DNA of 64,000 nt from a virus (IMGVR_UViG_3300028840_006907:32001-96000), one strand, 5' to 3'; positions 18,078-52,045 are shown, counted from the stretch's first letter. A program made the numbers and translations. Notes: generated by a model from the sequence alone, not told the origin.

Positions 18078-18090
18078 AGTCTGTATCTCC

Positions 18091-18300: not shown

Positions 18301-18344
18301 TCATTAAAGTTATGGGGGAAGTTATTCCCCCGTTAATTATTTAA

Positions 18345-18650: not shown

Positions 18651-18908
18651 GGTTCCTCCATGTTAAGGTTTATGTTAGTTATTTAATTATTATCTTTGTT
18701 ACGTATTAGTCTACGTAGAGTATTAATAGTCCGGTGACTTGTTCTTTGGTCATTCCGCTTAAGGCTTTGATAAATTCTATCGTTGTCCTTTCACCTTGTG
18801 TTTTGAGAAGAGTATTTATACATGCTTTCATTTCGGGTATCATCTCTATTGTGTTCATTGGTGTTATAGTTACAGTCTCCATGTTTTTTCTCCTGTCTGG
18901 TTTAAGTT

Positions 18909-19517
18909 TTAGTTATAGCGAGTTATTCCGTCACTGGATTCAAAATCCATTGCGAGTATGGTATATAATTCCGTTTCCTGTGTATTAATTGTGTCTGGAT
19001 TGACTTGTCTGGAATATCCATCACTGCTTTCAAAATCCATTGCGAGTGAAGCAAATTCATTTGATATGGTTACAAGCGAGTTAACTGGTTGAATTTCAAC
19101 GATTTCAGTCTGGGTTTGGACTTCTTTAATACATTCATCCATTAAACTATTTAGAGTATCTAAGTCGGTAGTTTTTACGAAGGTTTCCCAGTCCTCTTTG
19201 GACATATTAAAATATTCTCGTACGACTTCGAGTTTATCTATATCTGTTATAGTTTTTACTTTGTTCCCGTTTTGCCAAATACTTTTAGCTTTATTAGTAT
19301 ATATAATCTCGCCTGTAAAGTTATGGTTGAAATTTAACCAGCGAGTCTCGTTATTTACTGACGGGTCAATGACTTCAGCGAGTTTATTACCAAAACGGTT
19401 TATACGATAACGGCCAGTACATTGAACGTTTATCCATTCACGAATTGTTTTTCTTGCGGTTTGGTTTGTGCCATTAATAACAGCACCAATTAATTTATCG
19501 TTCATTAGTATAGACAT
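18909..19517 (-). CDS. hypothetical protein with duplicated C-terminal ILAMDFESSDG segment
   Basis: ORF track; 22-bp direct repeat at about 18936 and 19024 inside the CDS. Confidence 0.45.
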   Translation of the reverse strand: MSILMNDKLIGAVINGTNQTARKTIREWINVQCTGRYRINRFGNKLAEVIDPSVNNETRWLNFNHNFTGEIIYTNKAKSIWQNGNKVKTITDIDKLEVVREYFNMSKEDWETFVKTTDLDTLNSLMDECIKEVQTQTEIVEIQPVNSLVTISNEFASLAMDFESSDGYSRQVNPDTINTQETELYTILAMDFESSDGITRYN

Positions 19518-19572
19518 AATATTTCCCCTTGTCTAATGTATATATTAACAGTCAATTATTTTTTTCTGTTGT

Positions 19573-19915
19573 CATGAATAATGAAAAAAGTTTAGTAACT
19601 TTCCGAAGTTTTAAGAAACTTTTTCTTTGACGTTTGTTTTTTGTGGCTTTCATGAGTAATGAAAAAAGTTTAGTAACTTTCCGAAGTTTTAAAAATTTTT
19701 TCTTTCATGTAAACTTTTCCTTGTCTACATGAGTAATGAAAAAAGTTTAGTAACTTTCCGAAGTTTTAAAAATTTTTTCTTTCATGTAAACTTTTCCTTG
19801 TCTACATGAGTAATGAAATTAGTTTGGTAACTTTCCGAAGTTTTAAAAATTTTTTCTTTCATGTAAACTTTTCCTTGTCTACATGAGTAATGAAATTAGT
19901 TTGGTAACTTTCCGG
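19573..19915. repeat. tandem repeat, 77-78 bp unit, about 4.4 copies
   Basis: Unit starts (catgag/catgaa) at 19573, 19651, 19728, 19805, 19882. Confidence 0.85.
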
Positions 19916-20311
19916 AAAAAATTGTAAAAACGCTATTTTCCTTTATATAGGGGAGAGCCAGAAATCGCCCGTTTGATGTGCGTGATATATACGCCCGAAA
20001 ATGTTCCCGGTTCTAACCCCCCAGTGAAATACCCTTTCCACAAAAGTGAAATACCCCAATACAACTATACCATACCCGACCATACCCCACCCCCGGGACC
20101 TGTCTTCGGGATCATCATCATGCGCTTGCTTTTCGTGCGCTCAATGCCATACCCACCCCCTTTTTGTAAAGATTTTTGGAAGTTGGAAATGGATGGAGTT
20201 AGATTGGATTTTTTGGATGGTAGAAAATTTTGGCTGGTGGGAGAGACCCCACAGTAAAGTACCCGGTTGGTTCAGGGAAGTACCAATATGGTTCAGTGGA
20301 GTGTCTTTTTT

Positions 20312-34097: not shown

Positions 34098-34340
34098 AAA
34101 AGAAGTACCAATTGATAGTGGCCCAATCAGTGGATCGTGAAAATGATATTCATACCTTATTTATGTACTATGTAAGCTGGTGGAGAGCCAAATTAAACCA
34201 GTTTACCCATTATATCTTCAATAAGAAGTGCTCCTCAACAACATTAAGAAGAATACCTTTCGTTTAATTTACCTTAATTTCCGAGTAATTTTCTATTAAT
34301 ATTTGTTGCAATATCTAAACCAATTTGGAAGGATATTGCA

Positions 34341-37300
34341 ATGTACTCTATTGATGATTTTATTCAAACTGTTTTTTCATATACTCTTCAGAAACAGAAA
34401 TTCTTCGCAGCAGCAGAACGTGCTTTAAAGAAAAATCTCCAATCCTATATACGCCCCGACTTTTTCGGAACTAGTTCGGGAGATGTCCGACTAGATAATT
34501 TACTTGTATCTCTCGCCAATAGATTGGGTGAAGCTGATGTTGAAGATAAAAGAATTTTTCTTGAAGATGCAGTAAGTGATTTTGTCTCAGAAGAGAAGGC
34601 TGACGAGTTAAGAGCAATCCTTGAAACCAAATTGGAAAGAAAACATAAAATCCCTGAAGAACTAGCTGATAAATTTATCAGTAAATCAGGTTTACTTGTT
34701 GATGAAGAGAAAAAAGAATTTGATCGTGTGAAGAAAGATATGGTCAAATTGATCTCAGGTTTTATTTACGGTTTCTTCGAAAATAAATTTAAAGAATTTG
34801 TACGAGCAAAAAAGAAAAAAGAAGATATCGGTAGAGAAGTAGCCCCGGATCTAGAAGTCCTGCCTGATAGTGAATTAATTGATCAAGCTGAAAAAGAACA
34901 AGAATGGCAAGAAGGTTTAACTAAAGATCTGTTTGGATATATCAATAAAAATGTTCCGGAAAAAAGGCGCTATGCTTATAAAATGATCTTGTTAAAAAGA
35001 TTTATGGTAGCACCAGCTAGTAGGATGGGTTTTGTTGAAATGGCAGAAAAGACAGGAATACCCAAATCATCTCTGGAAGAATGGGAAAAAGATTTGGGCC
35101 GTAGACTTGCTGAATATCTCTCTGCAGGTGGCCTTGGCCCTAAATTCGTTAGTGAGGGTGGCCTTTATAAAAAAGATGTTAAAGTTCCCGATTATAAAGA
35201 TGTTTTTAAAAACAAAGAGAATTCGAATGATTTCAAAGATTTCATGGAAGGCAAACAACCAAAAACCGGTAAACCCATGAGTGAGAAGGTAAAAAAAATA
35301 TTAGAGTTGTTTGCTGAAGGTAAAGATACCAAGGAAATCGAATCACAGACTGATGCGAGTATTGGTCAGATAAAAAAATTAAAAAGTACTCATTTCTCTC
35401 CCTGGTATAAAGAGTGGTATGCTGAAATGCTTAAGGATGTCAGAGAAGCTACAGAACGTATAAAGAAAGCTCTTATGATAATTAATGGTGAGACACCTCC
35501 TCCAGCTTCTCATGAGAAATATGTGAATATGGCAATAGCTAAAAAATACCCTCTTGAACTTACTGTAACTTTTAGTGCCAATTATGATAACCAGGATTTA
35601 ATAAAGGAAAGTGATCGAGTTGATCCGGAAAAAGACCCGGTTGATTTTAAATACAAACATTACCAGGTAAAATTAGAAAGGACCAGTAGACCCCGAATTG
35701 AATATACTTTTGATCAAAAATTAACCGATAAAGGTGATTTTGAAGGTAGCCCTCGATCATCATTGGTCATTGAAGGAAATCCTGGTCATGAAGGTTTGAG
35801 AAGAAGGCTCGATGAATATGTCGAGCAAGAAATGAAACCAGAGGGTATCCTTCCTTACGGTCCTTCGGTAAAGGGTAGAAAACCTGTCCAGATCCCTGTT
35901 GAATATGTAAATGAATCTCTTGATAGTACTAAGACCTATGATGGGTCTAAAAAAAGAAGATATCGTGGATTTATTGATTTCGCTGACAAGTACAAAGGTT
36001 TCATGGTAAAAGACCAACCTCATTTAACCCGGGTTCAGGAAGAAAGTAAAAGGGAAGAGAAGAAATTGTTACCTAAGGGTGGAAAAAATGAAATTCGAAA
36101 ATTGATCCAGCATTTAAAAGAAAATATTGGTGATGAAATGGAAGAGACTACACCCGATAAGAAAAAAGTTGAGGTGTGGAAAAAACAGATTAAAGAATTA
36201 CAGGATCATTTGAAGAAAGATTCTGAAAAAGAAATAGTGGATTTTGTCTCAAAACATAAAGAGAGGTTTAAATTCGCTGTCTCTGAAGAGCGCATGAAAA
36301 ATGTTCGTGAATTGATGAAACTCAGAGAACTAGTAGAAAACCAAGAACAACGATTGTTACAAAGAAAAATGAAAGGTGATCCTAAAGATAAGGATACAGT
36401 TAAACTTAAAGAAGATATAGCAACAAATAAAGATAAAATCACTAAGCTCGAAAAAATCCTTGAAGAAACAAAAGAGCCATTTCCTCCACCAGAATCGGCT
36501 AAAGTTCAAAAGTTATTAAAGGAACTTTCTGATCTCGGTATTAAAGACAGAAAATTAGAAGAATTCCTGACTTCAACTGATCTCCAATTTTTTGTTAACC
36601 AGGTACAAGGTGCTCTGGCCAAGGAAGCACAAGATAATATCGCAGGTGTTAAGAAAAACAAAAATATGAGTGATGAGGAAAAGAAACAGGAATATGAAGC
36701 TATTGAGAGAAAACGTGGTGTAAAGCTGAATAAATTTATCGAGTTGTTTGAAGCTGTACCTGAAGACATGAAAAAACGTCTGGAGAAATATAAAAAGGCT
36801 GATCCCAGTGGGTATAAAAAATTAGAAAAGAAGCATGGGGCTCTTTTAAACTGGGTAAATAATCCTGAAAAAGCCCTCTCTAAAGTAAAACAGAATCTTT
36901 CTACACCGAAAACTCTTGAGGCTCCAAAAGGTAAACAGGAATCAGTGGTACCTATGGAGGAAGAGGATGCTAAATACATGCTCAATTGGCTTGAGGCCCA
37001 GTTACAGGGTTTCGATGTTATAGGAGAAAGATTTGGTCAGGCAGCTTTAAAAGCAGAAGGTTTAAGTCCACAAGAGAGAGTTAAGGTAGAAAAACAATTA
37101 AAAGATACAGAAAAAGAGTTTCAGGATTTACGAAATAGAATAGGTGAAATGGAAGGTAAAGGGAAGGCTACCACTAGTGAAATCAAAGATCTGAAAAAAG
37201 ACATACCGACTTATATGAGAACAATAGAAGGTTTAAAAAGTTCTCTTTCTGATTCAAAAGAATCTCCTGCTATGATTATGGCACAAGTTTTAACTGATCG

Positions 37301-38885
37301 ACTTTCTGATTTCACTAAAATGTACAATCCGTTATCAAAGACTTTATGGTTTAGCCCAAAAACCTATGAGAAGAGAGCAGAAATTGTTACCAGTGAAGAT
37401 GATCCAGCTTTAGCTTCATTGCAAAAGAACATTGCTAAGGATACAGTTTCATTTTCAAAACTCAGCATCTTCGATAAAGAATCCATTAGATCTCTGGCAA
37501 GTACCATCCGGTCAGGTTTATCAAAATTCAAAAAGGAGTTACCAAGAATGGCCTCTTTTAATCCAATCTATTTAACAGTAGAAGAAAAAGCCCTTATGGA
37601 TAAACAAGCTAAGGAAGAAGATCACTTTGAAAAACGTGTTAAATTTGTTTTTCCTGAAGGTGAATTGAATGATGCCAAAAATATGGTAACTCAGCTCAAA
37701 GAGAAGAAATTAGATGATGCATCGAAAAAAGCTCAGAAAGAATTATCAGAATTAATTAAAAATGTCACAAGTGCCTATGATGATTTCGATATAGGTAAAA
37801 TTAAAGCATTGGCAGAAAAAGAGGAGATTTCTGAATCAAAAGCTGCTGTTCGTTTAAAAAGAATAAAAGACTCATTGGCTAAATATGCTCTAAGTCAATT
37901 CATTCTTAAGTGGCAAGATGTCATAGACATGGGATTTAAAGATACTCCAAGAAAGAAAGGACCTTTGGGAGGACCGGAATCCCAAAAATATGATAAAATT
38001 TTGGAAATAATTGAAGAGGATGTACCTGAGTTATTTAAAGAGGCTCCTCCTGAGAAAGAAATAAAAGAAGCTCCTAAAGGCTTACCTACTCCTAAGGAAA
38101 TCAGAGAACGTATCGAAATGGAATTTGAAGAAGGATTTCCAGCACAAAAAGAAAGAGAATACAGAACTCTGAAGGACAAAGGTCATAAATTATTCAAAGA
38201 TCCTTCTGGGGCTGGTGGTGGCGGTGGCGGAAAAGGTAAAAGTCGCCCAAAACCTATAAAGAAACATCCTCCTGCCCATACATATGAAACACTTAAGAGT
38301 AATTTCAAAGAAGCTCTGAAAACAAAATCAGTTCATGACATAGTACTTAGTGAAATAGGCAGGTATTTACATAATGTGAGAAATTATGTGAAAGGTGGCT
38401 CTTATTTCGATGTGGATGATGTTGTTGCTGGAGTTGTCGATGTATTGAAAAATTTTAAAAAAGTCATCAAATCATTAAGAGTAACCATGGATCCAGGAGC
38501 TACTGCAGATATAAAACTGAAAGATGAAAAAGAGGCAAAACAACTTTTTAATAAATTATCAGATATTTACAAATTAATAGATATGATTGCTGCTGATGAA
38601 AGTGGGAAACCTGTTATAAAAATAGGTCCTATACCAGGTGATCTGAGTAAGATAAAAACTCAACGTGGTGAACCCGATACCTGGTTCCCGAAAGGTCTTA
38701 TGGAAGCTGTTCAAGTAAAAAAACGAGAAGAGATTGAAGAAGGAGCAAAAGAGAAAGCTCCTGAAAAGTCAGTTTCAGCAAAAAAAGTATCAGCACAATT
38801 TTTGGCTTTTAAATTAGCACATAAGTTTTCCTTTTCAGATTTACAAAAGATTGAAGGTCTGAAAGAAGATATAGATAAAAAATAA
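34341..38885 (+). CDS. giant K/E-rich protein (1514 aa), function unknown
   Basis: Single uninterrupted ORF; highly charged, probably largely helical; poly-Gly near C-terminus. Confidence 0.6.
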   Translation: MYSIDDFIQTVFSYTLQKQKFFAAAERALKKNLQSYIRPDFFGTSSGDVRLDNLLVSLANRLGEADVEDKRIFLEDAVSDFVSEEKADELRAILETKLERKHKIPEELADKFISKSGLLVDEEKKEFDRVKKDMVKLISGFIYGFFENKFKEFVRAKKKKEDIGREVAPDLEVLPDSELIDQAEKEQEWQEGLTKDLFGYINKNVPEKRRYAYKMILLKRFMVAPASRMGFVEMAEKTGIPKSSLEEWEKDLGRRLAEYLSAGGLGPKFVSEGGLYKKDVKVPDYKDVFKNKENSNDFKDFMEGKQPKTGKPMSEKVKKILELFAEGKDTKEIESQTDASIGQIKKLKSTHFSPWYKEWYAEMLKDVREATERIKKALMIINGETPPPASHEKYVNMAIAKKYPLELTVTFSANYDNQDLIKESDRVDPEKDPVDFKYKHYQVKLERTSRPRIEYTFDQKLTDKGDFEGSPRSSLVIEGNPGHEGLRRRLDEYVEQEMKPEGILPYGPSVKGRKPVQIPVEYVNESLDSTKTYDGSKKRRYRGFIDFADKYKGFMVKDQPHLTRVQEESKREEKKLLPKGGKNEIRKLIQHLKENIGDEMEETTPDKKKVEVWKKQIKELQDHLKKDSEKEIVDFVSKHKERFKFAVSEERMKNVRELMKLRELVENQEQRLLQRKMKGDPKDKDTVKLKEDIATNKDKITKLEKILEETKEPFPPPESAKVQKLLKELSDLGIKDRKLEEFLTSTDLQFFVNQVQGALAKEAQDNIAGVKKNKNMSDEEKKQEYEAIERKRGVKLNKFIELFEAVPEDMKKRLEKYKKADPSGYKKLEKKHGALLNWVNNPEKALSKVKQNLSTPKTLEAPKGKQESVVPMEEEDAKYMLNWLEAQLQGFDVIGERFGQAALKAEGLSPQERVKVEKQLKDTEKEFQDLRNRIGEMEGKGKATTSEIKDLKKDIPTYMRTIEGLKSSLSDSKESPAMIMAQVLTDRLSDFTKMYNPLSKTLWFSPKTYEKRAEIVTSEDDPALASLQKNIAKDTVSFSKLSIFDKESIRSLASTIRSGLSKFKKELPRMASFNPIYLTVEEKALMDKQAKEEDHFEKRVKFVFPEGELNDAKNMVTQLKEKKLDDASKKAQKELSELIKNVTSAYDDFDIGKIKALAEKEEISESKAAVRLKRIKDSLAKYALSQFILKWQDVIDMGFKDTPRKKGPLGGPESQKYDKILEIIEEDVPELFKEAPPEKEIKEAPKGLPTPKEIRERIEMEFEEGFPAQKEREYRTLKDKGHKLFKDPSGAGGGGGGKGKSRPKPIKKHPPAHTYETLKSNFKEALKTKSVHDIVLSEIGRYLHNVRNYVKGGSYFDVDDVVAGVVDVLKNFKKVIKSLRVTMDPGATADIKLKDEKEAKQLFNKLSDIYKLIDMIAADESGKPVIKIGPIPGDLSKIKTQRGEPDTWFPKGLMEAVQVKKREEIEEGAKEKAPEKSVSAKKVSAQFLAFKLAHKFSFSDLQKIEGLKEDIDKK

Positions 38886-38923
38886 AAATAAAATAAGAGC
38901 CCTCTTAGAAGGCTTGTAAAGGC

Positions 38924-39682
38924 TTGGAGACATCTGTGAAGTATAGCGTACTTGTACCCTACTATAAACGCCTAGGGCACCTACATAATACCTTTATTTC
39001 CTTTCTACACCATTATTCAGATAGAAATGATTATGAGGTTGTCATAGCAGAAGATTATAAAAATGTCCAGAATAAAAAAGACCATGACGGTCTATCAGAA
39101 ACCATTGAGAAATTCCGTGAAAAAATACCGATAATTCATTTAACTCTTTCTATGGAAACCTGGAATCCAGCTCATGGTTTTAATGAAGCTGCAAAGTGGG
39201 CTTCTGGTGAATATTTCGTTGTAACCAATCCAGAATGTTTCCATCAAGTGAACATACTGGCTGGACTCGATAAAGAATTTGAAGAAGACCCCAATGTCTA
39301 TGTTGTATGTGGTTGTATGAATTATGTCCGTTGTAATTTTTTTATTAAAAACTTTAATGATCTAAATGGAAAATTTCAGAGATGGTACCAACACTCAATA
39401 CATAGAGCAGCCCACTATCATTTCTGTTCAGCTATTTCAAAACAGAATTGGGTAAAAATAGGAGGATTCGATGAAGACTTTGCTATGGGTATAGCCTATG
39501 ATGATGTCGATTTTAAATTAAGCATTCAAAAAGCCAAGATACCCTTTCATATCCGGGATGACCTTCTTACTATACATATTGACCATGGTTCCTTCCCATC
39601 TCCTCCAAATGCTCAGAAATTAGTTAATCGAAATAGAATCACCTATCAAAGAAAATGGGAAGGAAGTAATGAATCTTACTAG
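38924..39682 (+). CDS. putative family-2 (GT-A) glycosyltransferase
   Basis: N-terminal YSVLVPYY and GGFDEDFAMGIAYDDVDF segments resemble GT2 signatures; start codon uncertain (TTG 38924 or GTG 38936). Confidence 0.5.
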   Translation: METSVKYSVLVPYYKRLGHLHNTFISFLHHYSDRNDYEVVIAEDYKNVQNKKDHDGLSETIEKFREKIPIIHLTLSMETWNPAHGFNEAAKWASGEYFVVTNPECFHQVNILAGLDKEFEEDPNVYVVCGCMNYVRCNFFIKNFNDLNGKFQRWYQHSIHRAAHYHFCSAISKQNWVKIGGFDEDFAMGIAYDDVDFKLSIQKAKIPFHIRDDLLTIHIDHGSFPSPPNAQKLVNRNRITYQRKWEGSNESY

Positions 39683-41762
39683 TTATACCGCAGCCGACAG
39701 TATCCCGATAAAATTGATTAAGAACTTTAAATTGTTAAAGTCCATGACAACAAAAGGAGTCATCTTACCAATCCATGTCCAGTTCATACCCACAAATAGA
39801 TGTAACATGAAATGTGGATTTTGTAGCTGTGCTGAAGATGACAGAAAAACAGAAATGTCCCTTAAAAATGCTAAGAAGATCATCAGAAAATTAAAAAAAC
39901 TCGGTACTCAATCCGTAACCATCACCGGAGGAGGAGAACCACTCCTTTATCCTCATCTCCAAGAATTGTTTTCTCTGTTTAAAGATGCCGGGATAAAAAT
40001 CGGTTTTGTTACCAATGGCCTCTTATTAGGTAAATGTACCTATGAAGATGTAACCTGGTGTCGGATTTCTAATTCTGATGAAAGAAAAATGGACATGGAC
40101 TATTATCACACAATAGCTTATGCTGTTGAAGATAACCCAAACGTGGACTGGGCCTTTAGTCATGTCGTTTCTCCAAAACCAAATATCTCCGAAATAAAAC
40201 GGATCATAGAATTTGCCAATCTCCATGATTTTACCCATGTCCGATTAGTAGCTGATCTATTGAATTATAAAGAAGTAGATTTAATGCAGTTAAAAATCAC
40301 TCTTCGAGATGAAAATGTCGATGATGATAAAGTCATCTATCAAAGTAGAAATACCCCGCTCAGAGGCGGAGACTGTTATATATGCTATCTTAAACCCATG
40401 ATAGGGGCTGACTGTAATGTGTACGCTTGTTGTTTAGAGGCTAATGAACCTGTATTAATCCAGAGAAATAACGAAAGGATGTATTTATCTATAAAGGATG
40501 TTGTTCCAGGGGATTATGCTTGTGAATATGGAAAGATTTTAAATGTGTTTCATAAAGAGGGTGAAGAAGGCTTGGAAATAGTTTTGCAAAATAATAGGAC
40601 TATTTATGTTTCGAAAGATCATCTTATGCTTAAATTGACAAACCCTGAAATTAGACATAAGAGAAAGAAGTTATTATCTGACTATGAATTAGATACAATA
40701 GAATCTTCTGAATTAAGAATTGGAGATTTACTTCCGGTCAAATATAAATATGATATTAGTGAAATAAAAGAAGATACTATATCTGAAGAAGAAGCAGAAT
40801 TAATAGGATATTATGTAGCTGAAGGTTGGTCCAATGAACGAACTTGTATAGTTGATAAAAAATATCCTACTAGAACTACCACTATAGGATTTATGCTAGG
40901 GAAAGAGTCAAGAGAATATATAAGAAGATTTGAAGAAATTTGTGATATTTTGAATCTAAATTTTTCTATGACTGAACGTAGAACTGGTATGCAGTATCAG
41001 ATAGGTGCACATAAACCCTACGATGACTTAATTGTACACTGTGGTAATAAAGCAGAATTAAAAAAGATCCCTCCTTTTATTTTAAACGGCTCTGATAAAA
41101 TAAAGTGGAAATTTATTCAAGGCTATTTTGGAGGTGACGGGAATTTTCAAACTCCTTCTAAAAGCTATGATGGTTTTAAAATGAGAATGAGTACTGTCAG
41201 TAGACAACTAGCTAATGATATAATTTATCTCTTTTGTACTTTAAATATTCATGCTTCTATGAGAGTTGAGAGACGTGAAGGAAAAATGATAATAGAAGGA
41301 AGAGAGGTAAATGCTAAAGATCGGTATCATATAAATATAGGGGGAGCCTATAATTTAGAAAAAGCCCCATTCCTAAATGTAATTCAAACAAAAGAAAGAA
41401 GTCCTAAAAGAGCCCTCGGTTTTTTGAAAGATGAGGATAAGGGCATTATGTTTGTACCAGTTAAAGAGATCAGAGAGAAAAAGTTAGGAAAATTAGTAGA
41501 CATTCAAGTGGAAGGTTCAAATAAATTTATATCTTCATTTGGTATAATAGTTCATAATTGTGGCGTCCAGTATGCTCTTAAAAAGCCTTCAAAGAATCTT
41601 CCTAAGAAACTGAGCCTAGGAAGTGCTTTTGATCTTGAGAAGATAATTGAGAACAGTAATAAGCCCCTGGACGGGAGCATGTGTTATCGATGCTATTATA
41701 GTAATTATAACAAGATACTAGGATCCATCCTGGATGATACCGATCATATGGAGTTTGTATGA
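39669..41762 (+). CDS. radical SAM enzyme interrupted by an intein
   Basis: CNMKCGFC (CxxxCxxC) and TGGGEPLL in N-extein; intein blocks described separately. Confidence 0.65.
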   Translation: MNLTSYTAADSIPIKLIKNFKLLKSMTTKGVILPIHVQFIPTNRCNMKCGFCSCAEDDRKTEMSLKNAKKIIRKLKKLGTQSVTITGGGEPLLYPHLQELFSLFKDAGIKIGFVTNGLLLGKCTYEDVTWCRISNSDERKMDMDYYHTIAYAVEDNPNVDWAFSHVVSPKPNISEIKRIIEFANLHDFTHVRLVADLLNYKEVDLMQLKITLRDENVDDDKVIYQSRNTPLRGGDCYICYLKPMIGADCNVYACCLEANEPVLIQRNNERMYLSIKDVVPGDYACEYGKILNVFHKEGEEGLEIVLQNNRTIYVSKDHLMLKLTNPEIRHKRKKLLSDYELDTIESSELRIGDLLPVKYKYDISEIKEDTISEEEAELIGYYVAEGWSNERTCIVDKKYPTRTTTIGFMLGKESREYIRRFEEICDILNLNFSMTERRTGMQYQIGAHKPYDDLIVHCGNKAELKKIPPFILNGSDKIKWKFIQGYFGGDGNFQTPSKSYDGFKMRMSTVSRQLANDIIYLFCTLNIHASMRVERREGKMIIEGREVNAKDRYHINIGGAYNLEKAPFLNVIQTKERSPKRALGFLKDEDKGIMFVPVKEIREKKLGKLVDIQVEGSNKFISSFGIIVHNCGVQYALKKPSKNLPKKLSLGSAFDLEKIIENSNKPLDGSMCYRCYYSNYNKILGSILDDTDHMEFV
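40431..41558 (+). mobile_element. intein with LAGLIDADG-type homing endonuclease domain (boundaries approximate; N-terminal Cys at 40428 or 40431)
   Basis: Starts CLEANEPVLI, ends GIIVHN followed by Cys; internal IGYYVAEGW and IQGYFGGDGNF motifs. Confidence 0.6.
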
Positions 41763-43617: not shown

Positions 43618-43983
43618 TCACGTGGTTACCGGCTTCTCTTTCTTTTTTAAGGTGCTTCTCAATTTCCTTGATCTGGTCTTGCATAAATTCTTTTTGTCGT
43701 CCCATTCTTCCAGACCTCCCTTATTGAGAGTATCATTTTTAAGCGTTAAGTTCAAGTCTCTTAATGACATACATGGAACATCCCGTACTCGTTTGGAGTT
43801 CCATATAGGGCATACAGTATGATTACACCTATTAGGACCTAACCTACACTCGACATTAAAATGTCCAGGTTCTCCGGCATAGAGGAAATTTCGTTCTATG
43901 CAGTGCGCCTGGAATACCTGAAAAGGCATTATCTTTTCGACACTTACCCCGTTTTTATGTGATTTATTATTCATATTTTTCAT
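43618..43983 (-). CDS. hypothetical Cys/His-rich protein (start moved out of CRISPR array)
   Basis: Track ORF 43618..44127 runs into array; ATG at 43981-43983. Confidence 0.3.
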   Translation of the reverse strand: MKNMNNKSHKNGVSVEKIMPFQVFQAHCIERNFLYAGEPGHFNVECRLGPNRCNHTVCPIWNSKRVRDVPCMSLRDLNLTLKNDTLNKGGLEEWDDKKNLCKTRSRKLRSTLKKKEKPVTT

Positions 43984-44019
43984 TCTAGGAATGTAAAGTA
44001 TTAGAGGATTATTAAGGGG

Positions 44020-47018
44020 AGGGAAACCCCGCTCAGATGCAGGGAAGAAGATTTCATTAAGAAGTTTTAGGAAGAGCCCCGCAGAGGAGGAACCTCGCAA
44101 GATGCGGGGAAAAGGAACTTCAGGCAATTGGCTGGGATTAGCCCCGCGAAGGTGCGGGGAAAACAGTTTCCATGAACTATATTAGGGAGAGCCCCGTTGA
44201 CACGGGGAAAAACCCGTCTTTACTTAGTGAGATCGAGGAAGGAACAGCCCCGTTGATACGGGGATAAAATAATATGACTTTTACGAATCCTCTAGGGACA
44301 GCCCTGCAGAGTGCAGGGAAAAGTAACGTCTGGGAATTGTTTAGGATTAGCCCCGCGAAGGTGCGGGGAAAGCCATAGATTTTATATTGACACAGGAAAA
44401 ACCCCGGTATAGTCCGGGGAAAAGTACGTAATCAAGATGTAAGAGGATTAGACCCGGCGAGTCCGGGAAAAGATTGGCCCAATCACTATTAAGTAGGGTG
44501 GGATAGCCCCGCAGAATGCAGGGAATAGATGCCTCACTTCATACCACTGCGTCAACCCCAGTAGAGTCCGGGGAACATGAGTGTAAATCTCTGTCGTAGG
44601 TTCAACCCCGGAGAGATCCAGGGGAAATGGGTACAACTTTGTGTACAAGGGGTAGCCCCGGAGAAATCCGAGGAAAATGAGTGTAAATCTGTGTTGAGGG
44701 TCCAGCCCCGCTCAGTGCAGGGAATATTAAGGGTCAAAACCGGTTGCCCCTGCGTCAACCCCGGTGAAGTCCGGGGAACATGAGTGTAAATCTCTGTGGT
44801 AGGATCAACCCCGCAGAGTGCAGGGAAAAATTGAACTTTTTAATCAACCCTGTAACAGCCCCGGAGTCAGTTTTGACAAGTCCGGGGGAATATCACTTCG
44901 TAAAGGAGTGGCTGTCAAGGGGGCAACCCCACAGAGATGTGGGGGAAAGTAAGCCAACGTTCCGGCATAGGCATAGCCCCTGAATTTACAGAGGGCAATT
45001 TTTCCAGTGTCCAGAAGAAGATGCAGGGAGAACCCCGGAAAGTCCAGGGGAAAATGTGTCACAGAACAACTCTTTGTGATCTCCAGGGTGAACCTCGCAG
45101 AGGTGCGGGGGAAAAGTGTCAATGAATACCAGTATGAGTCAGCCCCGGTATAGCCCGGGAATAATTACTTCTAGTCTGATAGAAGGTGCAACCCCGGGAA
45201 GTCCGGGGAAATCGGTCATAGCCATCTGGACCAGGAAGAACCCCGGTGAGATCCGGGGAAAAGGACGTTTAAATCCTGACATAGTAGCTAACTGAGGCGT
45301 AGCTCCGGTCGGGTCAGCCCTGCAGAGAGCAGGGAACAAACATAGGTAATAAATCGGCACGTGACAGCCCCGCAGAGAGGCGGGGATATATAGCGTGAGT
45401 TGCAGGGTAAGGTTCAACCCTTGTTTACCAAGGGAAAAATACCGGCAGATAAGAATTTAGGATGACCCCCGGTGAAAGTCCGGGGAAAATAATTAATACG
45501 CAAAACAGCAGGGCCAGTCCCGCGAGATGCAGGGAATGTTCAGCCAGTTTGTGTAATATTTCAGGAGACGGTGGTGCAACCCTGTCAAGGACAGGGATAT
45601 GCAACATCTGTGGCTCTACGAGGATCAGCCCCGGCAAGTCCGGGGAATTATCTTTTTATAAATGCCAAAAATAACAGTTGGGAGGGGCCAATTCCGCTGA
45701 TGCAGAAAGACATTTCATAATTAATATATTTATGGAAGAGCCCCGGTGAAATCCGGGGAAGTCAAGTAATTACAGCTCGCTGACCACTGGGGGTAGCCCC
45801 GGTAAGATCCGGGGAAAAGTTTGTTTTGAAACAAACGCTAGGAACAGCCCCGCTCAGGTGCGGGAGAATCACTGCATATTTGGTTAATGGCCCCCCTGAG
45901 TCAATCCCGCTCAGGTGCGGGGAAAATAAAGAGATAGACTAATTCAATATGCAGGAAGAACCCCGCTATATGCAGGAAAATTTAAAAAGTATGGATATCT
46001 CCTTGAGTCAACCCCGGAGATCCAGGGAAATGTAGGCACTCGTTGTCCTTTGTCGAAGTGTGAAGGGCAAACCTCGTTGATACGAGGAACAAATTTAGTT
46101 TTACTTTTGAATAAAAGTGGTCAAGCCCCGCTCAGGTGCAGGGAATAGATAAGTATACCGACGATAGCCAGGACAGCACCTGTGGTTTAGCCCTGCATGT
46201 GCAGGGAATAGTTGAGTTGAAGATTGAAGAAAAAGATAAAGTAGGGTCAGCTCTGCATGTGCAGAGAATAGCCTTTCTTCAAGCGTTGACTTGGGAGTAG
46301 GTGGGGATCAGCCCTGCACATGCAGGGAATAGAATGGTGAATCAAATTCCATTTTGTCAAAGAACGGCGACAGCCCTGCCAGTGCAGGGAATATGATTTT
46401 AACGATGGTAAAATTGGGAAGGGGTCAGCCCTGCACATGCAGGGAATAGTCGCTAGTTCAAATCCAATCGCCCCGACAGGATCAGCCCTGCATACGCAGG
46501 GAATAGAAAATACTGACGATAAACTAGCGATATGGGATCAGCCCTGCATACGCAGGGATATAGCTTGACGAATGGCCGTTTTAATGCCAGGAGTAACCCC
46601 GCTGCGAGGAATAGTCATTTCAAATATATAGGTAAAGCCCCGCGAAAGAGCGGGGGTATAATATGGCGGATTTTGTTCTATTGGTGGAATCCGGGCCATC
46701 CCCGTAGATTGACACGGGGAGATCTTTTAGAAATCTACCAAGGTGCCTTTCCGGAGTCATCCCCGTATATACGGGGGAGATTTCAATTCAGGGAATTTCG
46801 GTACAAAATTGGTCGGTTTATCCCCGTATACACGGGGAATATTGTTTCAATAGGGCATAGCAGATCTAGGATCGGGGAATCCCCGCAGGGGCGGGGAACA
46901 TCTCGGATTTATTAATCAAATTCAAACGTTTTTCGGGGAATCCCCGCAGGGGCGGGGAACATTGTTTTAAGAGGTGGTAGTTACCTCGTAGGGGAATCCC
47001 CGCAGGGGCGGGGAACAT
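44020..47018 (-). CRISPR. CRISPR array 1, roughly 50 repeat-like units, strongly heterogeneous; leader-proximal repeat ggggaatccccgcaggggcggggaacat (28 nt, 3 identical copies)
   Basis: Periodic hairpin repeats with 23-33 nt spacers; leader-proximal copies at 46874, 46935, 46991; minus-strand reading matches the I-E TTCCCCGC-N4-GCGGGGAT form. Confidence 0.8.
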
Positions 47019-47127
47019 ACTAAGTCATAATGCCATTCAAATCAAAGGTTTATAGGAACCCTAATTTTCTACCAAAGAAAAATGTACTTGTCATGTATAA
47101 ATGTCAAAGAGCGTCAGAGAGAAATCC
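47019..47127 (-). promoter_or_regulatory. CRISPR leader 1, with a ~55-bp core shared with leader 2
   Basis: accctaattttctaccaaa...tataaatgtcaaagagc shared with 54587..54683; contains TTGACA on minus strand. Confidence 0.5.
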
Positions 47128-49359
47128 CTAGTGGATATACCGAATCCATTCATATCGAATTTTCATCGTTTTATAAGGAGCTTTTTTTCTCCCTGGAAAT
47201 ATGTTTCCTTCAAAAAGGAAAAATTTTTGAACAATTTTAAATTCAGCGTTTGATGGTGTCAAGCTCTGTGGTGCATAATCCGAACGCCAGTAATTATTAC
47301 AATATATAAATTTTTCTTCTCTGTCTTTTTGTATAAGGCCCGGAAACACCACTAAAACTATCTTTTCGTTTTCAATAACAATATCCCCTTGATAAATAGC
47401 TATTTCTAAATCCAGACCATCCTGCTCTATCACACGAGCATATTTCGAGAGTTTCCCATCAATCTTTACTTTAGCTTTAGGGGGAATATCAAAAGTTATC
47501 CATTCACCTTTTATGTCCTTAATGCTTTGAATAGGTTTTTTAACTGGAATTTCTTGAAAGACATGATCTTGGTATTCTGCTTTTTTAAGGATTTCTCCAT
47601 CTTTTTCCATATTAAGCAATAAAGCCTTTTCCATGATGTCTTTAAGTTCATAGAGATCTTTTTCAGTTAAGGGCTCTTTTGTTCCGAATACGATGGAACC
47701 TACATTCTCTAATCGAGCGATTTTATCAAAACCCTGTTTCCGGACAAAGTCTATGGTAATATGTTCTATTTTTCTATTTCTTGAAAGTCTTATGATTCTT
47801 ACAAATTCAGTTTTAATTGTGTCTTTGAAATTATCAAAACTTAAATGATCTTCTACGTAGGGATGATACAAATCCGCTATAAGACTTAATAAAATTTCTA
47901 TGTCTTCAGGTTTATCCTGTTTACGGTTGTAATCATAAGCTTTAATAATTTCTTGTCTCATTTCCATTAATATATCAGGAGCCATTATTTCACTTAAACT
48001 GGTAGATCCTTTTTTGTCCCGATAAAAGGGAGCTGTTGGAAGTAAGGGAATCCTGATAGCAGCACAAAGTTCTGACATTACAATTGAGGTTAAGAACAAA
48101 TTCAATCTGTCTGAATATAATGCCCTGATATTATTACGTTCTTCTTTTTTAATAGGTGGAACATAAATGTATAACCATATTTTATCTTTTTTAGGGTAAC
48201 ATCTGAAAATACGAAACATTATTTGAGAGAAGGTCACCTGACTCTTTCCATAACTTGTATTATGTAAAACAGCAGCAGGAGGCCAATCATACCCTTCATA
48301 GAATATTCTGCAAGATACGGCGACCCAGTATTTTTTATGATTACGTCTCAATAACTCTCTATTTTTTTTCTGAGTTTCCGGTGTGACTAAATCCAGTACT
48401 TTGGACGCAGGATATATTTCGTGAATAGCTTTTAAATATTTTTTAAGGGTTCCTTCCTCTCTGAACCGGTTCCCCATGTCAGGTAATATGACAATGTGTC
48501 TTTGATCTTTGTGCTCTTTCATATATCTAATGATCTGAGTAAGGGGATCTTTCCTATAGTGAGTGAAACGGAAATTGAATTCTTTGATTTTTATGATTGA
48601 GAGATAGTCATTTAATGGGATAACCCATTTTTCAAAATGATGTTTATAAGCATTGGGGACTATTTCTCCTCTGTCTGTGCGGTGGTAAGTAGCTGTATAA
48701 AAATTTACGTTACAAGTAGGTTCATGGATGGTACATACATCTCTGACAAAATCACCCAAATGAGTGGAATCTAGTGGGGTTGATTTTGAATGATGGCATT
48801 CATCTACATGTACAGTTAAATTTCTAAGGGCTTTCTTTTTTTCATAGTTGGTTAATTTTTCCCAGGTCATGACAAACCCTCTATGGGTAGCTGTAGCAAT
48901 AGGGCCTGTTATATGTTTTTCATTGTACGGGTATTTTCGAGGATCTGCTAAAAGGAATTCTTTAAGTCCTTTAATGGATTGAGGGTTTTCACTATTGAAT
49001 TTATGTTCTTTTGGTACTTCCCACAATCTTACCATACCTTTATATTTGATTTTTATTTGTCTATTTTGGGATCTGCAGAAATTTTCACCTATTTCTATTG
49101 TTGGTGCGATAAAGATATGTTTTCGAGTATTTTTAGATATTATGATTTCATCCAGGGATATGCATACTGCTAAAAAAGTTTTGCCGACTCCCCCTGGTGC
49201 ATCAAAGATCATGTATCTGAATTTTTTCCCATATTCTTTTGCATTGCATTGCCAGCCAGAGGGTATCATGATCCCTGATTCAAGTTTTTTATTATAGGTA
49301 CCAAGGTCAACCGGTTCTATTTTAATAGATTGCTGGAAAAGCGGTAATAGCTTTTTCAT
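47128..49359 (-). CDS. cas3: SF2 DExH helicase, Cas3-like, without HD nuclease domain
   Basis: Motif I FDAPGGVGKT, motif II VDECHH, motif III TAT, motif VI-like QIMFRIFR; sits between cas6e and leader 1; GAGAGGA SD. Confidence 0.5.
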   Translation of the reverse strand: MKKLLPLFQQSIKIEPVDLGTYNKKLESGIMIPSGWQCNAKEYGKKFRYMIFDAPGGVGKTFLAVCISLDEIIISKNTRKHIFIAPTIEIGENFCRSQNRQIKIKYKGMVRLWEVPKEHKFNSENPQSIKGLKEFLLADPRKYPYNEKHITGPIATATHRGFVMTWEKLTNYEKKKALRNLTVHVDECHHSKSTPLDSTHLGDFVRDVCTIHEPTCNVNFYTATYHRTDRGEIVPNAYKHHFEKWVIPLNDYLSIIKIKEFNFRFTHYRKDPLTQIIRYMKEHKDQRHIVILPDMGNRFREEGTLKKYLKAIHEIYPASKVLDLVTPETQKKNRELLRRNHKKYWVAVSCRIFYEGYDWPPAAVLHNTSYGKSQVTFSQIMFRIFRCYPKKDKIWLYIYVPPIKKEERNNIRALYSDRLNLFLTSIVMSELCAAIRIPLLPTAPFYRDKKGSTSLSEIMAPDILMEMRQEIIKAYDYNRKQDKPEDIEILLSLIADLYHPYVEDHLSFDNFKDTIKTEFVRIIRLSRNRKIEHITIDFVRKQGFDKIARLENVGSIVFGTKEPLTEKDLYELKDIMEKALLLNMEKDGEILKKAEYQDHVFQEIPVKKPIQSIKDIKGEWITFDIPPKAKVKIDGKLSKYARVIEQDGLDLEIAIYQGDIVIENEKIVLVVFPGLIQKDREEKFIYCNNYWRSDYAPQSLTPSNAEFKIVQKFFLFEGNIFPGRKKAPYKTMKIRYEWIRYIH

Positions 49360-49444
49360 TGTCTTTTTCCTCTCAAATAAGTCCTGGAAAGCCTTTTCAG
49401 GGGCTTTCCAGGATTAATGTACTGTGTATTCTATATCAACACTT

Positions 49445-49600
49445 TCAATCGTTTTTATCAATCTCCGTGGCTAATACCGACATAAATGACATTCCGGTTC
49501 CTCCTGGTAATTCAATAATAGAAGGTCTTTTGATGTTCTCTTCTAAATTCCTAGAAGCGAGTTGCCAAGAATAGGCTTTTATAGTTTTTGTATTATTCAT
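49445..49600 (-). CDS. small ORF (51 aa) between cas6e and helicase, unknown
   Basis: ATG at 49598-49600 with TGGAGA SD; no motif. Confidence 0.25.
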   Translation of the reverse strand: MNNTKTIKAYSWQLASRNLEENIKRPSIIELPGGTGMSFMSVLATEIDKND

Positions 49601-49628
49601 TTTAAAATCTCCATATAAAAGGTTTATT

Positions 49629-50273
49629 TTAATAAGATTTATACGGTGCAATAAGCATCATACCACATCCGAAACCTTTACTCTTACCAATTCCATTATA
49701 AATAGTATTCACAAAAAGATTTTTATTGACTACCTGAAGGACTCCTCGTAAATCAATACTGAAAAAAGATACAACTTTACCATCTTTTTTTTTGAATTTA
49801 CAGAATTGAAAAGATTGAACGGAATGCTTTTGAATCATATTTTTAAAACCGTAACTTTGGCCACGTTTCTGAAGCCAATTCTTTGAGGATTCGTGAGCAA
49901 TGAAATTCCAATTATAGGGTTCATCAAGAACTTTCATTTCATTTGCCAGATCCGTCATGATTGAAACCTTTTTCCTGGTTTTCAATTTACAAACTTCGGC
50001 ATTGAGTCTGAGATCGTATTGAAGAAATATTCCAGATTTTAAATTATTTAAATCGAATACTTTTGTTTGTGTAGTGTATTCGTCCTCTGGAGGATTTGGT
50101 TTCTTTTTTGATATGATATAAAGTTCACCATTATAGAGATAATAAAGGAAATCTCTTACCCTGTTAGATCTTTGATCACCAAAAAATTCCCAGACTTTTT
50201 GATGAAGCTCATATATACCTTCGGTGGGAGAATATCTTCTCAAGCTGTCACTGTAAATTTTACTCAGAAACAT
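49629..50273 (-). CDS. cas6e: Cas6e (CasE) crRNA endoribonuclease
   Basis: MFLSKIYSD..YELHQKVWEFF..RDFLYY and C-terminal GIGKSKGFGCGMM match recollected E. coli CasE; start moved to ATG 50273. Confidence 0.75.
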   Translation of the reverse strand: MFLSKIYSDSLRRYSPTEGIYELHQKVWEFFGDQRSNRVRDFLYYLYNGELYIISKKKPNPPEDEYTTQTKVFDLNNLKSGIFLQYDLRLNAEVCKLKTRKKVSIMTDLANEMKVLDEPYNWNFIAHESSKNWLQKRGQSYGFKNMIQKHSVQSFQFCKFKKKDGKVVSFFSIDLRGVLQVVNKNLFVNTIYNGIGKSKGFGCGMMLIAPYKSY

Positions 50274-50910
50274 TCGATACCTCCTTCCATCCCATATACT
50301 CAATTCGGGATCGGTATTGTTTGGGACCGGTTACCTGATCAAAACGTTGATTGCTTTTTACTATTTTGATACTGGTATCGGTACCTTCCCAAAATATTCG
50401 GTTCTTTTCACGCCCTTTAAGACTACCATTAAGAAATTCAGGAAGAGAGTACTGTTCAAACGCCTCTGAGAGGCTCTCAGCCTTAACGATCTTAGGATCG
50501 GGTGGTATGTCATAGGAACAGCATTTCCTTCCAAGAAAGGGGGTATAGATGGGCCTATTAAGGGCTTCCATTATTTTCTTCAAAGTATAGGGACAGTTTT
50601 CATTCTCCCATATACATACGGTAAAGATGGCATTGACTAGGTAAAATCTATTCGAGACAATTCCTGGTCCGACTCTGACAATATGGAAATCTTTTAGAAT
50701 AGTACCAGGATTATCTTCCCTACAGGCAAATCCTAGTTGGGCAATCTGAGTTAATTCTTTCACCATTTCTCTTGAGACTCCAAGAGAAGCAGCGATTAAC
50801 CCGCTTACGCCAGATTTGGTAGGGTGATCATCTGTCTTTCGGGTATTACCCTGAAGGGGGAGACCCCAGGCGGATAGAGTACCCGAAAGAAGGAATAATA
50901 AATAATTCAT
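50260..50910 (-). CDS. cas5e: Cas5e (CasD)
   Basis: LSGTLSAWGLP, PTKSGVSGLIAASLG, YTPFLGRKCC match recollected E. coli CasD; AGGAG SD. Confidence 0.75.
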   Translation of the reverse strand: MNYLLFLLSGTLSAWGLPLQGNTRKTDDHPTKSGVSGLIAASLGVSREMVKELTQIAQLGFACREDNPGTILKDFHIVRVGPGIVSNRFYLVNAIFTVCIWENENCPYTLKKIMEALNRPIYTPFLGRKCCSYDIPPDPKIVKAESLSEAFEQYSLPEFLNGSLKGREKNRIFWEGTDTSIKIVKSNQRFDQVTGPKQYRSRIEYMGWKEVSNVSE

Positions 50911-50933
50911 AATATTATAACTCCTGGTAACAA

Positions 50934-52019
50934 TTAGAAATCGATGAATTTAATAAGTTCGTTAAGTGATCCTTCTTTTGTGAGTACATTCAAGATCCTA
51001 TAATCCATTTCATGGTAACATGAATCAAAACTACTTTTCATGTCAAGAAGGGCTTTGACAGCATTTTCCATAACCGCAGGACCTTTAATAGGAGTATGGA
51101 AGGCTTGACAGAGACTTCGTGGGGCAGTTGGAGCTTTTTCGATCATAACGAATGCTGGCCATGTTTGACTATCAGCACATCTGTTTTTATTAGCTGAGGG
51201 GGATGAAGTGGTTAATACTTCGACTATCTGTCGGATGGTTTTGATAGCTAGTTCTTTATTACCTTGAAGATTTTTCGTTAAGAGCTTGGAATTGATTACA
51301 AAGAAACTATAATAGACACCCTGGGTAAAATAGAAATTATCTAGGTGACCTGAACCTTTGGTTCCTTCTAATCCAAGGTTATCGGTAGCTGTAAAATAGT
51401 CGGTTTGGACAGATCCTATATCATTGACAGTAAAAGCGAAATTTGAGGACAGTGAAGCTTCAACATCATATTGGGGCAGTTTTGCAATCATGCGACCGGT
51501 AAGGGCTGTTCTGATTCCTGTATTTTCTTTTAAAAAGAAGAATTCTTGATCAGTGGGTTTATGCCCCTCAATAATTTTGTCAATCAGTTCTTCAATATGT
51601 TGTCTTTCGCTCGGTTGAATTTTAATGGTTTCGGTTTTAAGAAGATCAACCTTTTTTTTCTTTTTCTTTGTATTTTTATCATCTTCTTTTTCAGTGTGCT
51701 TTTTGATATCAACAAAAGTACCAATAAATTTAAATGCGTATTCTTCAGCTTTTTTAGGTGATATTCCACCATCAATTAATCTTTTCTCGACATATTTTCC
51801 AATAAGAGGAGTCTGAAGACCTATATCGATTTCGCACCTTTCAAATAGAGCCTTGTTTAAATCATATTTTCGATTTTGTGAAGACGAATAACCTCGGTTG
51901 GTATCATTAAGTTTCATTGTTTTAGGACGTCCGTCCTGGCCTCGGTTTATGCTAGATACAGCTACACCAGTGAGAAGGTGAATTAACCAGTAGGGGTCTT
52001 TAATAATAGTTTTAGACAT
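50934..52019 (-). CDS. cas7e: Cas7e (CasC) backbone subunit
   Basis: SINRGQDG, SSSQNRK, ALTGRM, FTATDNLGLEGTKGSGHLD match recollected E. coli CasC. Confidence 0.8.
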   Translation of the reverse strand: MSKTIIKDPYWLIHLLTGVAVSSINRGQDGRPKTMKLNDTNRGYSSSQNRKYDLNKALFERCEIDIGLQTPLIGKYVEKRLIDGGISPKKAEEYAFKFIGTFVDIKKHTEKEDDKNTKKKKKKVDLLKTETIKIQPSERQHIEELIDKIIEGHKPTDQEFFFLKENTGIRTALTGRMIAKLPQYDVEASLSSNFAFTVNDIGSVQTDYFTATDNLGLEGTKGSGHLDNFYFTQGVYYSFFVINSKLLTKNLQGNKELAIKTIRQIVEVLTTSSPSANKNRCADSQTWPAFVMIEKAPTAPRSLCQAFHTPIKGPAVMENAVKALLDMKSSFDSCYHEMDYRILNVLTKEGSLNELIKFIDF

Positions 52020-52045
52020 AAATACTCCTTGATATTTATTATTTA

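Follow-up and report, generated by a model that had tools for sequence, protein, structure and literature searches.

Huge (jumbo) phages without an RNA polymerase (RNAP) of their own capture the RNAP of the host via phage sigma factors and factors with a single helix-turn-helix (HTH) (PMC7824862; PMC7162821), and phage 'minimal sigma' and T4 gp33-type single-HTH factors recruit the host enzyme through its beta-flap (Iyer et al. 2021, PMC7824862). The known tools of such phages for this takeover are small sigma factors, single-HTH adaptors and anti-sigmas. Here we describe a gene for a giant protein of 1514 aa in a 64,000-nucleotide stretch of virus DNA (IMGVR_UViG_3300028840_006907:32001-96000), hereafter called the window. 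The N-terminal head of the giant protein appears, from profile comparisons, to be sigma-derived or at least sigma-like, from region 2.4 to region 4.2, and is followed by a second HTH and a conserved body; the approximately 1100 residues beyond the HTHs showed no likeness to any Pfam, PHROG, NCBIfam, PDB or BFVD entry. As the best-supported explanation, we consider it possible, at a probability of about 0.45, that the giant protein is a soluble, non-enzymatic, sigma-derived transcription or DNA-binding scaffold.

The open reading frame (ORF) of the giant protein occupies 34341..38885 on the + strand, with an ATG start, 1514 codons and a TAA stop, and the ribosome-binding site (RBS) GGAAGGA lies at 34327-34333. 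An earlier interpretation made from the DNA alone, hereafter the sequence-only reading, had described a single 4.5-kb ORF here, and this was upheld: the start of the protein is colinear with those of five full-length homologs, and the existence of 68 related clusters among 1.84 billion representatives shows that the ORF is not a chance frame. The protein has a mass of 173.9 kDa and a pI of 9.0. Its composition (K 15.3%, E 11.2%, D 6.9%, R 4.4%; K+E 26.5%) agrees with the very high charge ascribed to it in the sequence-only reading, and it contains no Cys. Neither a transmembrane-compatible hydrophobic stretch nor an ER/K single alpha-helix was found in it.

To delimit the family, an exhaustive hidden Markov model search was run with residues 390-1514 as the query against the 1.84 billion representatives (clusters at 50% identity), and at least 68 family clusters were detected, 49 of them at E<1e-30. 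Members are mostly full-length (1400-2250 aa), are located on phage-like metagenomic contigs and are conserved over the whole protein length. A word-indexed protein search yielded at least six members, also with 6- and 29-sequence profiles, and gave five full-length relatives at 30-65% identity, and a metagenome scan added four further loci of the giant gene. No relative was found in GenBank phages, in a motif-seeded scan of IMG/VR or in the plasmid collection; among 185,579 species genomes one relative was found, on a 6-kb contig binned to a KSB1 metagenome-assembled genome. The identical protein is present on metagenomic contigs of 389-470 kb, a size and setting that mark an uncultivated huge phage. 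No description of the family was found in the literature. The family is thus previously undescribed and comes from uncultivated huge phages, and the giant gene is most likely a conserved single-copy gene of one lineage of such phages.

The relationship of the N-terminus to sigma factors was seen at the family level. On the N-terminal consensus, the NCBIfam model TIGR02937 (sigma-70/extracytoplasmic function (ECF) superfamily) scored 51.3 bits (9.6e-14; cutoff 42.9 bits), with consensus positions 113-251 aligned to positions 41-165 of the 165-position model, and the TIGR02985, RpoH and PRK07037 models were also colinear with the consensus. As a consensus sequence can inflate scores, an independent profile-profile test was made with hhalign, in which the real 29-member N-terminal alignment was compared with a profile of nine real ECF sigmas (the RpoE sequence in this profile is 100% identical to an E. 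coli record). The match extended over 117 columns at E 1.3e-5 to 4e-5 (probability 70-81%) and placed aa 137-263 of the window protein (P0001) on RpoE 69-188, which takes in the helix of region 2.4, the linker and both parts of region 4 (4.1 and 4.2). The controls, a reversed sigma profile and the helical body of the family, gave E 0.84-0.85. A second, weaker sigma-4 match (E 0.0034) was generated by the downstream HTH (HTH2, see below). In a single-sequence comparison with RpoE the signal was too weak to inform, and Foldseek with the low-confidence N-terminal model returned no significant match, its list being topped by ECF sigma-E/H, sigma-A and isolated region 4. The motif FxEDxVDxF in the N-terminal domain resembles the region 2.2 signature AEDLVQExF by eye only. 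As regards membership of the sigma-70 family, the region 4 (4.1/4.2) HTH is present at the family level, the window protein alone scoring below threshold, and from region 2 only the 2.4 helix aligns. Because regions 2.1-2.3 are not detectable, we do not call the giant protein a sigma factor.

The head carries two HTH domains. HTH1 (aa 191-262; 34911..35126, + strand) is sigma region 4.1/4.2-like and possibly Cro/C1-like, and HTH2 (aa 312-350) together with a conserved aromatic helix, YFxxWYKEWY, reaching aa 381 (35274..35483, + strand) is of the LuxR/GerE/sigma-4 type. The sequence-only reading had quoted two strings as resembling HTH motifs; these correspond to aa 234-252 and aa 328-347, lie within HTH1 and HTH2, and were correctly recognised, since both regions score as HTH domains at the family level. 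When the 29 members were searched against Pfam, HTH families were the sole recurrent matches. For HTH1, the homolog P0002 matched HTH_3 at 26.9 bits (gathering score 23) and the family consensus matched HTH_3, HTH_5 and HTH_11 at approximately 1e-8 (35.1 bits for HTH_3); the window protein has no HTH_3 match, and its segment aligns better as sigma region 4 in the colinear context. In PDB, RpoH region 4 was matched in the HTH1 region at E 0.026. For HTH2, a 26-member profile matched DesR (4LDZ; 1.3e-5), RcsB (6e-4) and GerE (4e-3) in PDB, as well as a sigma-H C-terminal fragment (3mzy; 2.7e-4) over about 90-107 residues. The family consensus in this region matched HTH_23 (7e-14), GerE (1e-11) and, in two stretches, Sigma70_r4 (1.8e-11); the GerE/LuxR model scored 44.7 bits on the consensus (gathering score 23.5). 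Individually, 3 of 29 members matched GerE/LuxR, and 3 of 29 matched Sigma70_r4. From these matches, HTH2 is assigned to the LuxR/GerE/sigma-4-type HTHs.

The remainder of the architecture was drawn from conservation and from AF2 models of residues 1-600 (6-sequence multiple sequence alignment; predicted local distance difference test score (pLDDT) 58) and 601-1514 (36-sequence alignment; pLDDT 73). Residues 1-600 were modelled as helices up to residue 400, a four-stranded sheet at 406-477 and a helix at 484-497, and residues 601-1514 as about 30 helices with hardly any strand and with disordered linkers including a Gly/basic/PPP segment. The expectation of a largely helical protein in the sequence-only reading, for which structure prediction had been proposed as a check, was thereby borne out, with a single sheet. 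The N-terminal helical domain (aa 1-165; 34341..34835, + strand) contains the conserved motifs ADAxxNLxxYLxxxIRPE and FxEDxVDxF, and the last of its long helices (aa ~137-160) is the one aligned with sigma region 2.4. It is joined to HTH1 by an acidic linker of low pLDDT (aa 166-190; 34836..34910, + strand; net charge -8), which aligns with the sigma2-sigma4 linker. Beyond HTH2, a novel alpha/beta domain (aa 390-500; helix, four strands, helix) and a conserved segment (aa 501-575) with the motifs KPEGxxP and DxxHxxR occupy 35508..36065 (+ strand); within this part F436 and G502 are invariant, and it generated no match in Pfam, NCBIfam or PDB, even with the consensus or a profile. The all-helical body (aa 576-1289; 36066..38207, + strand) starts with K/E-rich helices of variable length (aa 576-705), followed by a FPxPES...WLxPxDL module (aa 706-860) with invariant R813 and W838, the motif PAxxxA...YFSxLY...LWF (~aa 976-1000), a FIxKW motif with invariant W1191, and SPLGNxP...GIPTPKxIRExIE. 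A conserved disordered linker (aa 1290-1312; 38208..38276, + strand; pLDDT <50, net charge +6, pI 11.4) consists of the poly-Gly stretch GAGGGGGGKGK (aa 1290-1300), which is the Gly run seen near the C-terminus in the sequence-only reading and is kept across the family, and the basic proline-rich motif KxRxKxxKxPPP. In the C-terminal helical domain (aa 1313-1450), which with the tail occupies 38277..38882 (+ strand), D1390, I1391, N1414 and P1418 are near-invariant and P1450 is invariant; the tail closes with an amphipathic helix that is conserved (xxFxLAxKF). Neither family nor fold searches gave a match for the C-terminal domain.

The search for remote homologs, likewise proposed in the sequence-only reading, returned HTH/sigma-type matches at the N-terminus and none for the rest. 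Pfam and PHROGs scans of the window protein alone gave nothing significant, the consensus searched in five segments against Pfam and NCBIfam matched in the N-terminal segment only, and profile searches against all PDB sequences detected the HTH2 region alone. With the model of residues 601-1514, Foldseek returned generic helical bundles only from PDB (best E 0.9), and its best match in the viral library BFVD had E 0.095 (TM-score at most 0.1, root-mean-square deviation (rmsd) 30-45 A). An internal repeat architecture was dropped because the self-matches were weak. Within the family, members appear from their sequences to differ by module duplication. In a composite of L010 and L009 (1762 aa) the FPxPE...WLxPxDL module is duplicated by direct comparison, apparent extra HTH2 or HTH1 modules were read by eye in P0021, P0024, P0031 and P0045, and the length variation (1400-2250 aa) apparently stems for the most part from the K/E-rich helices and from the C-terminal tail.

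The absence of Cys is a property of the whole family. Cys makes up 0.066% of approximately 57,000 residues in the family and is missing altogether from 13 of 35 members, against 1.9% in the other ORFs of the window; at this background rate, a protein of 1514 aa without Cys would have P ~2e-13. Such exclusion typically marks proteins destined to leave the cytoplasm or to travel in an unfolded state. It would suit a protein exposed outside the cell or threaded through the tail, and a role as a cytoplasmic transcription factor offers no reason for it. A short motif, [LIVM][PD]Y[DE]x[LIVM] (e.g. IPYEKV and VDYDSIG), was observed 17 times against 1.6 expected in other members (P0008, P0009, P0011, P0016, P0035, P0050, etc.) and does not occur in the window protein. 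Its occurrences gather at three junctions between domains (corresponding to aa ~380, ~650-700 and ~1084), where it could serve for processing or docking.

Upstream of the giant gene lies a conserved element, TAATTTTCTATTAAT (34286..34300, + strand), 41 nt before the ATG. Its pattern, TAATwwTCnnnTAAT, occurs a single time before the gene in each of the eight loci that include a 5' flank, where protein identity falls to as low as 26%, at a distance of about 35-45 nt from the start codon. The 64-kb window contains two strict copies against 0.45 expected. As looser versions are not enriched, the element is rare and specific, and its use as a general promoter of the genome was rejected. The element is treated, from its sequence and position, as a candidate gene-specific promoter or operator. 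The second strict copy (44000-44014, minus strand) is at the left edge of a hairpin-repeat region, is kept in the related loci L004 and L006, and sits 18 nt upstream of a conserved Cys/His-containing ORF of ~121 aa (43618-43982, minus strand) without an obvious Shine-Dalgarno sequence; the same rare element thus heads two unrelated transcription units.

A predicted hairpin in the 5' untranslated region (UTR) (34306..34341, + strand; -18 kcal/mol) has a 10-bp stem with arms at 34306-34315 and 34332-34341, a loop that holds most of the RBS, and a 3' arm that ends on the A of the start codon. L004 and L006 share it, one base pair having changed from A-T to T-A in a compensatory manner (GCAATATC/GATATTGC versus GCTATATC/GATATAGC), and distant loci do not have it. 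The enclosure of the RBS and the compensatory change between relatives suggest translational control of the giant gene. At the other end of the gene, 12 nt past the stop codon, a G+C-rich hairpin, AGCCCTCTTAGAAGGCT (38898-38914), scored as terminator-like on the minus strand only, and may be a bidirectional or weak terminator between the giant gene and the glycosyltransferase gene that follows.

No capsid, portal, terminase, packaging or tail gene was found beside the giant gene in approximately 12 loci. In the window, it follows genes for an HNH endonuclease and a phosphohydrolase and precedes those for a family-2 glycosyltransferase, an intein-interrupted radical-SAM protein and a methyltransferase, with a sulfotransferase gene, the hairpin-repeat region and type I-E-like cas genes with a helicase farther downstream. 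Neighbours in distant relatives encode HNH endonucleases, RtcB, phosphohydrolase, an AcrVA2-like protein, SpoVG, an M78 peptidase and PHROG ORFans. The giant gene often stands second or third after the point at which a block of tiny ORFs gives way to divergently oriented genes. A conserved partner gene was sought and rejected: the upstream gene of ~146 aa is kept only in the three closest phages, and no neighbour is universally conserved. In two distant relatives, L014 (11701-12576) and L015 (21891-22721), canonical RpoD-like sigma-70 genes (regions 2, 3 and 4) follow the giant gene on its own strand at a distance of 5-6 kb, and in a third, L002 (18238-19872), a gene placed likewise encodes a 544-aa protein with a sigma-4 domain only. 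No homolog of these sigma genes was found in the 64-kb window.

The interpretation as a sigma-derived scaffold is supported, besides the sigma and HTH matches and the upstream element kept in all eight loci, by the position of the gene among non-structural, nucleic-acid and host-takeover genes, with sigma-70 genes (L014, L015) or the gene of the sigma-4 protein (L002) nearby. On this interpretation, the tandem HTH head would bind DNA and/or the RNAP beta-flap, like sigma region 4 and gp33-type factors, and would steer the host core RNAP or mark specific sites on phage DNA, with the huge helical extension acting as a platform or regulatory domain. The element before the gene itself would be the best candidate target of the head, because two TAAT half-sites one helical turn apart suit two HTHs per chain, and the giant gene may be autoregulated through it. 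ECF sigma genes are typically autoregulated. The sequence-only reading had offered a DNA-binding scaffold as one of its interpretations, and this is compatible with all findings; its HTHs stood at both positions, while the sigma-like N-terminal module is more specific and had not been proposed there.

Several points weigh against the sigma-derived scaffold. The strongest sigma score came from an artificial consensus sequence; the window protein alone had no match in NCBIfam, and its HTH matches in Pfam reached just 12 bits, below threshold. A comparison of sigma regions 2.1-2.3 with aa 1-136 gave E 0.14 (reversed control, 0.38), so that these regions are not detectable, and no Sigma70_r2 or r3 match was found in Pfam among the 29 members or the consensus. 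Regions 2.1-2.3 are the main core-binding and -10 recognition parts of a sigma factor. The N-terminal AF2 model is poor (pLDDT 58), a size of 174 kDa is unusual for a transcription factor, the TAAT-N7-TAAT spacing is incompatible with a -35/-10 promoter, and the extreme avoidance of Cys is not explained by a purely cytoplasmic role. In addition, the residues invariant in 29 diverse members (F436, G502, R813, W838, W1191 and P1450) all lie outside the HTHs, and the core function may therefore reside in the ~1100 residues of unmatched sequence.

None of the alternatives considered below would rule out DNA binding. The Cys exclusion (0.066% versus 1.9%) leads to the alternative that the giant protein is packaged in the virion and co-ejected as a pilot or DNA-organising protein, in the manner of the virion-associated or ejected protein that the sequence-only reading had also offered; this could be combined with the sigma-like interpretation, and we hold it to be a serious but rather less likely explanation. 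Such a protein would be packed into the large capsid together with the genome, bound to it via the HTHs and the basic Gly/Pro hook, would pass extended through the tail, and would then protect, organise or prime the incoming DNA. The very large, all-alpha, modular build with flexible hinges is like that of known ejection proteins, the rare upstream element differs from those of the neighbouring genes, and the motif enriched at the domain junctions of other members could mark processing sites; the strict form of that motif is, however, missing from the window protein, low Cys is also common among charged helical proteins, and the protein has no lytic, membrane or enzymatic domain, no sequence or fold likeness to known internal, ejection or inner-body proteins, and no structural, packaging or tail gene adjoining it in the loci surveyed. 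In a combined form, considered quite unlikely, the giant protein would be a virion-delivered sigma-like factor that is packaged and ejected and whose head captures the host core RNAP at TAAT-N7-TAAT sites on the entering DNA; packaging with the genome would then account for the Cys exclusion, the all-alpha build and the flexible hinges. If true, such a factor would offer a protein-only way to start early transcription, in place of the RNA polymerases that N4- or phiKZ-type phages package.

The sigma likeness could instead be generic to HTHs, the giant protein being an ordinary LuxR- or Cro-like repressor or activator, or a nucleoid-associated DNA-bridging protein, without RNAP contact. HTH1 does match Cro/C1, ArsR and HTH_11 models, and HTH2 GerE, HTH_23, KorA and transposase PAI-type models, the upstream element is operator-like, and the basic KxRxKxxKxPPP motif could provide a second DNA contact. 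We regard this as unlikely, as the sigma match is colinear over 117-125 positions, including the region 2.4 helix and the linker, the sigma-H match spans about 90-107 residues, and a simple repressor of 1500 aa is without precedent. It is highly improbable that the giant protein is a polyvalent-type effector or an enzyme with a catalytic domain (for example within aa 390-575) too divergent to be recognised. Conserved polar residues (D558/H561/R564 and KPEG) do occur in or beside the alpha/beta domain, which has no PDB match, and giant multidomain injected effectors exist in phages (PMC7824862), but no enzymatic family emerged from Pfam, NCBIfam, PHROGs or PDB profiles, even when the consensus or the 29-member profile served as the query, and all six invariant residues belong to types typical of structural roles (aromatic, Gly, Pro or Arg). 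A tape-measure or other tail or structural protein is suggested by size and helicity only, and by tape-measure entries in the BFVD list. These entries are noise (E >= 0.1, probability <= 0.15, TM-score <= 0.1, rmsd 30-45 A), no tape-measure Pfam or PHROG match, transmembrane segment or nearby tail gene was found, and the protein carries DNA-binding HTH domains; as it shows none of the defining features, this identity is effectively refuted. The sequence-only reading had named clear homology to a tape-measure or similar structural protein lacking a DNA-binding fold as the outcome that would overturn it, and no such match appeared.

Several other features of the surrounding DNA were recorded. 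The window has a G+C content of ~33% and is packed with short ORFs without family matches, with strand blocks switching near 20 kb and at 42-47 kb; Rfam and tRNA scans of it were empty. The cumulative GC skew reaches its minimum at ~18-20 kb and gene orientation flips from - to + between 19517 and 20046, making ~18000-20000 a candidate replication origin or divergent early promoter region. The radical-SAM gene downstream of the giant gene (39669-41762, + strand; 697 aa) contains an intein with a LAGLIDADG homing-endonuclease domain, and its ortholog in L004 (11436-12404; 322 aa) has no intein. The hairpin-repeat region (44000-47050, + strand) is a G+C spike (0.50) of about 50 hairpin units of a type I-E-like repeat form, CCCCGS-N4-7-SCGGGGAA. 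Units at 46184-47018 have a regular spacing of 56-62 nt and fall into two repeat subtypes, and those at 44000-46150 are highly degenerate, ~50 nt apart, with compensatory stem changes; the units have no Rfam match. The adjacent cas genes (47128-53989, - strand) encode Cse1, Cas7, Cas5, Cas6e and a ResIII helicase without a recognised HD nuclease, and neither Cas1 nor Cas2 was found in the window. The same hairpin-repeat/cas block adjoins the giant-gene homolog in L004, and phage CRISPR systems without Cas1/Cas2, in which a helicase replaces Cas3, have been described for huge phages (PMC7162821). Genes for a DUF932 protein (14878-16008, - strand), of a type typical of phages and plasmids, a second radical-SAM protein (61306-62025, - strand) and an esterase/lipase-like protein (62184-62873, - strand), together with the family-2 glycosyltransferase, methyltransferase and sulfotransferase genes, suggest extensive modification chemistry in the phage.

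Compared with known systems, the giant protein shares with ECF sigmas (TIGR02937; E. coli RpoE) a colinear region 2.4 helix, acidic linker and regions 4.1/4.2, and its conserved gene-specific upstream element is reminiscent of ECF autoregulation. ECF sigmas with C-terminal extensions exist, and they resemble the giant protein in that its sigma-like head is likewise fused to a C-terminal part unrelated to sigma. The giant protein differs from ECF sigmas in having no detectable regions 2.1-2.3, an N-terminal domain roughly double sigma2 in size, a further HTH and an extension of ~1100 aa, which make it 8 times the size of an ECF sigma, an upstream element that is not -35/-10-like, and no anti-sigma partner in view. 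With LuxR/GerE proteins (NarL/FixJ-type; DesR, RcsB, GerE) it shares the HTH2 matches, including the signature LLAEGKSxxEIA, but here HTH2 is embedded in a giant protein without a receiver or ligand domain. As in the minimal sigma and gp33-type systems, a phage sigma-4-like HTH is found in large phages that also encode sigma factors; those factors are small, whereas here two HTHs are joined to a giant body. Large injected or internal proteins (T7 gp15/gp16, P1 DarB, polyvalent proteins; PMC7824862) are similar in size, helicity and modularity, and the Cys exclusion would fit tail passage; the giant protein, however, neither matches them in homology or fold nor carries an enzymatic, lytic or membrane domain, and its gene neighbourhood is non-structural. 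Tape-measure proteins are likewise long and helical, and the giant protein has none of their defining features.

Taken together, the HTH and sigma-like module is of a known kind, and what is new is that this module is joined to an additional HTH and to a giant conserved body that matches no known fold, that Cys is excluded throughout the family, and that the family is confined to an undescribed lineage of huge phages, of which the giant gene (at least 68 clusters) is a signature gene. About 75% of the family length represents new fold space, and the near-total Cys exclusion raises the testable question of whether a sigma-like factor can be delivered through the tail. Set beside the small takeover tools of huge phages without their own RNAP, a conserved protein of 1400-2250 residues that combines a partial sigma module, a second HTH of the sigma-4/LuxR type and ~1100 residues without a known fold would represent a novel class of factor for transcription or DNA organisation.

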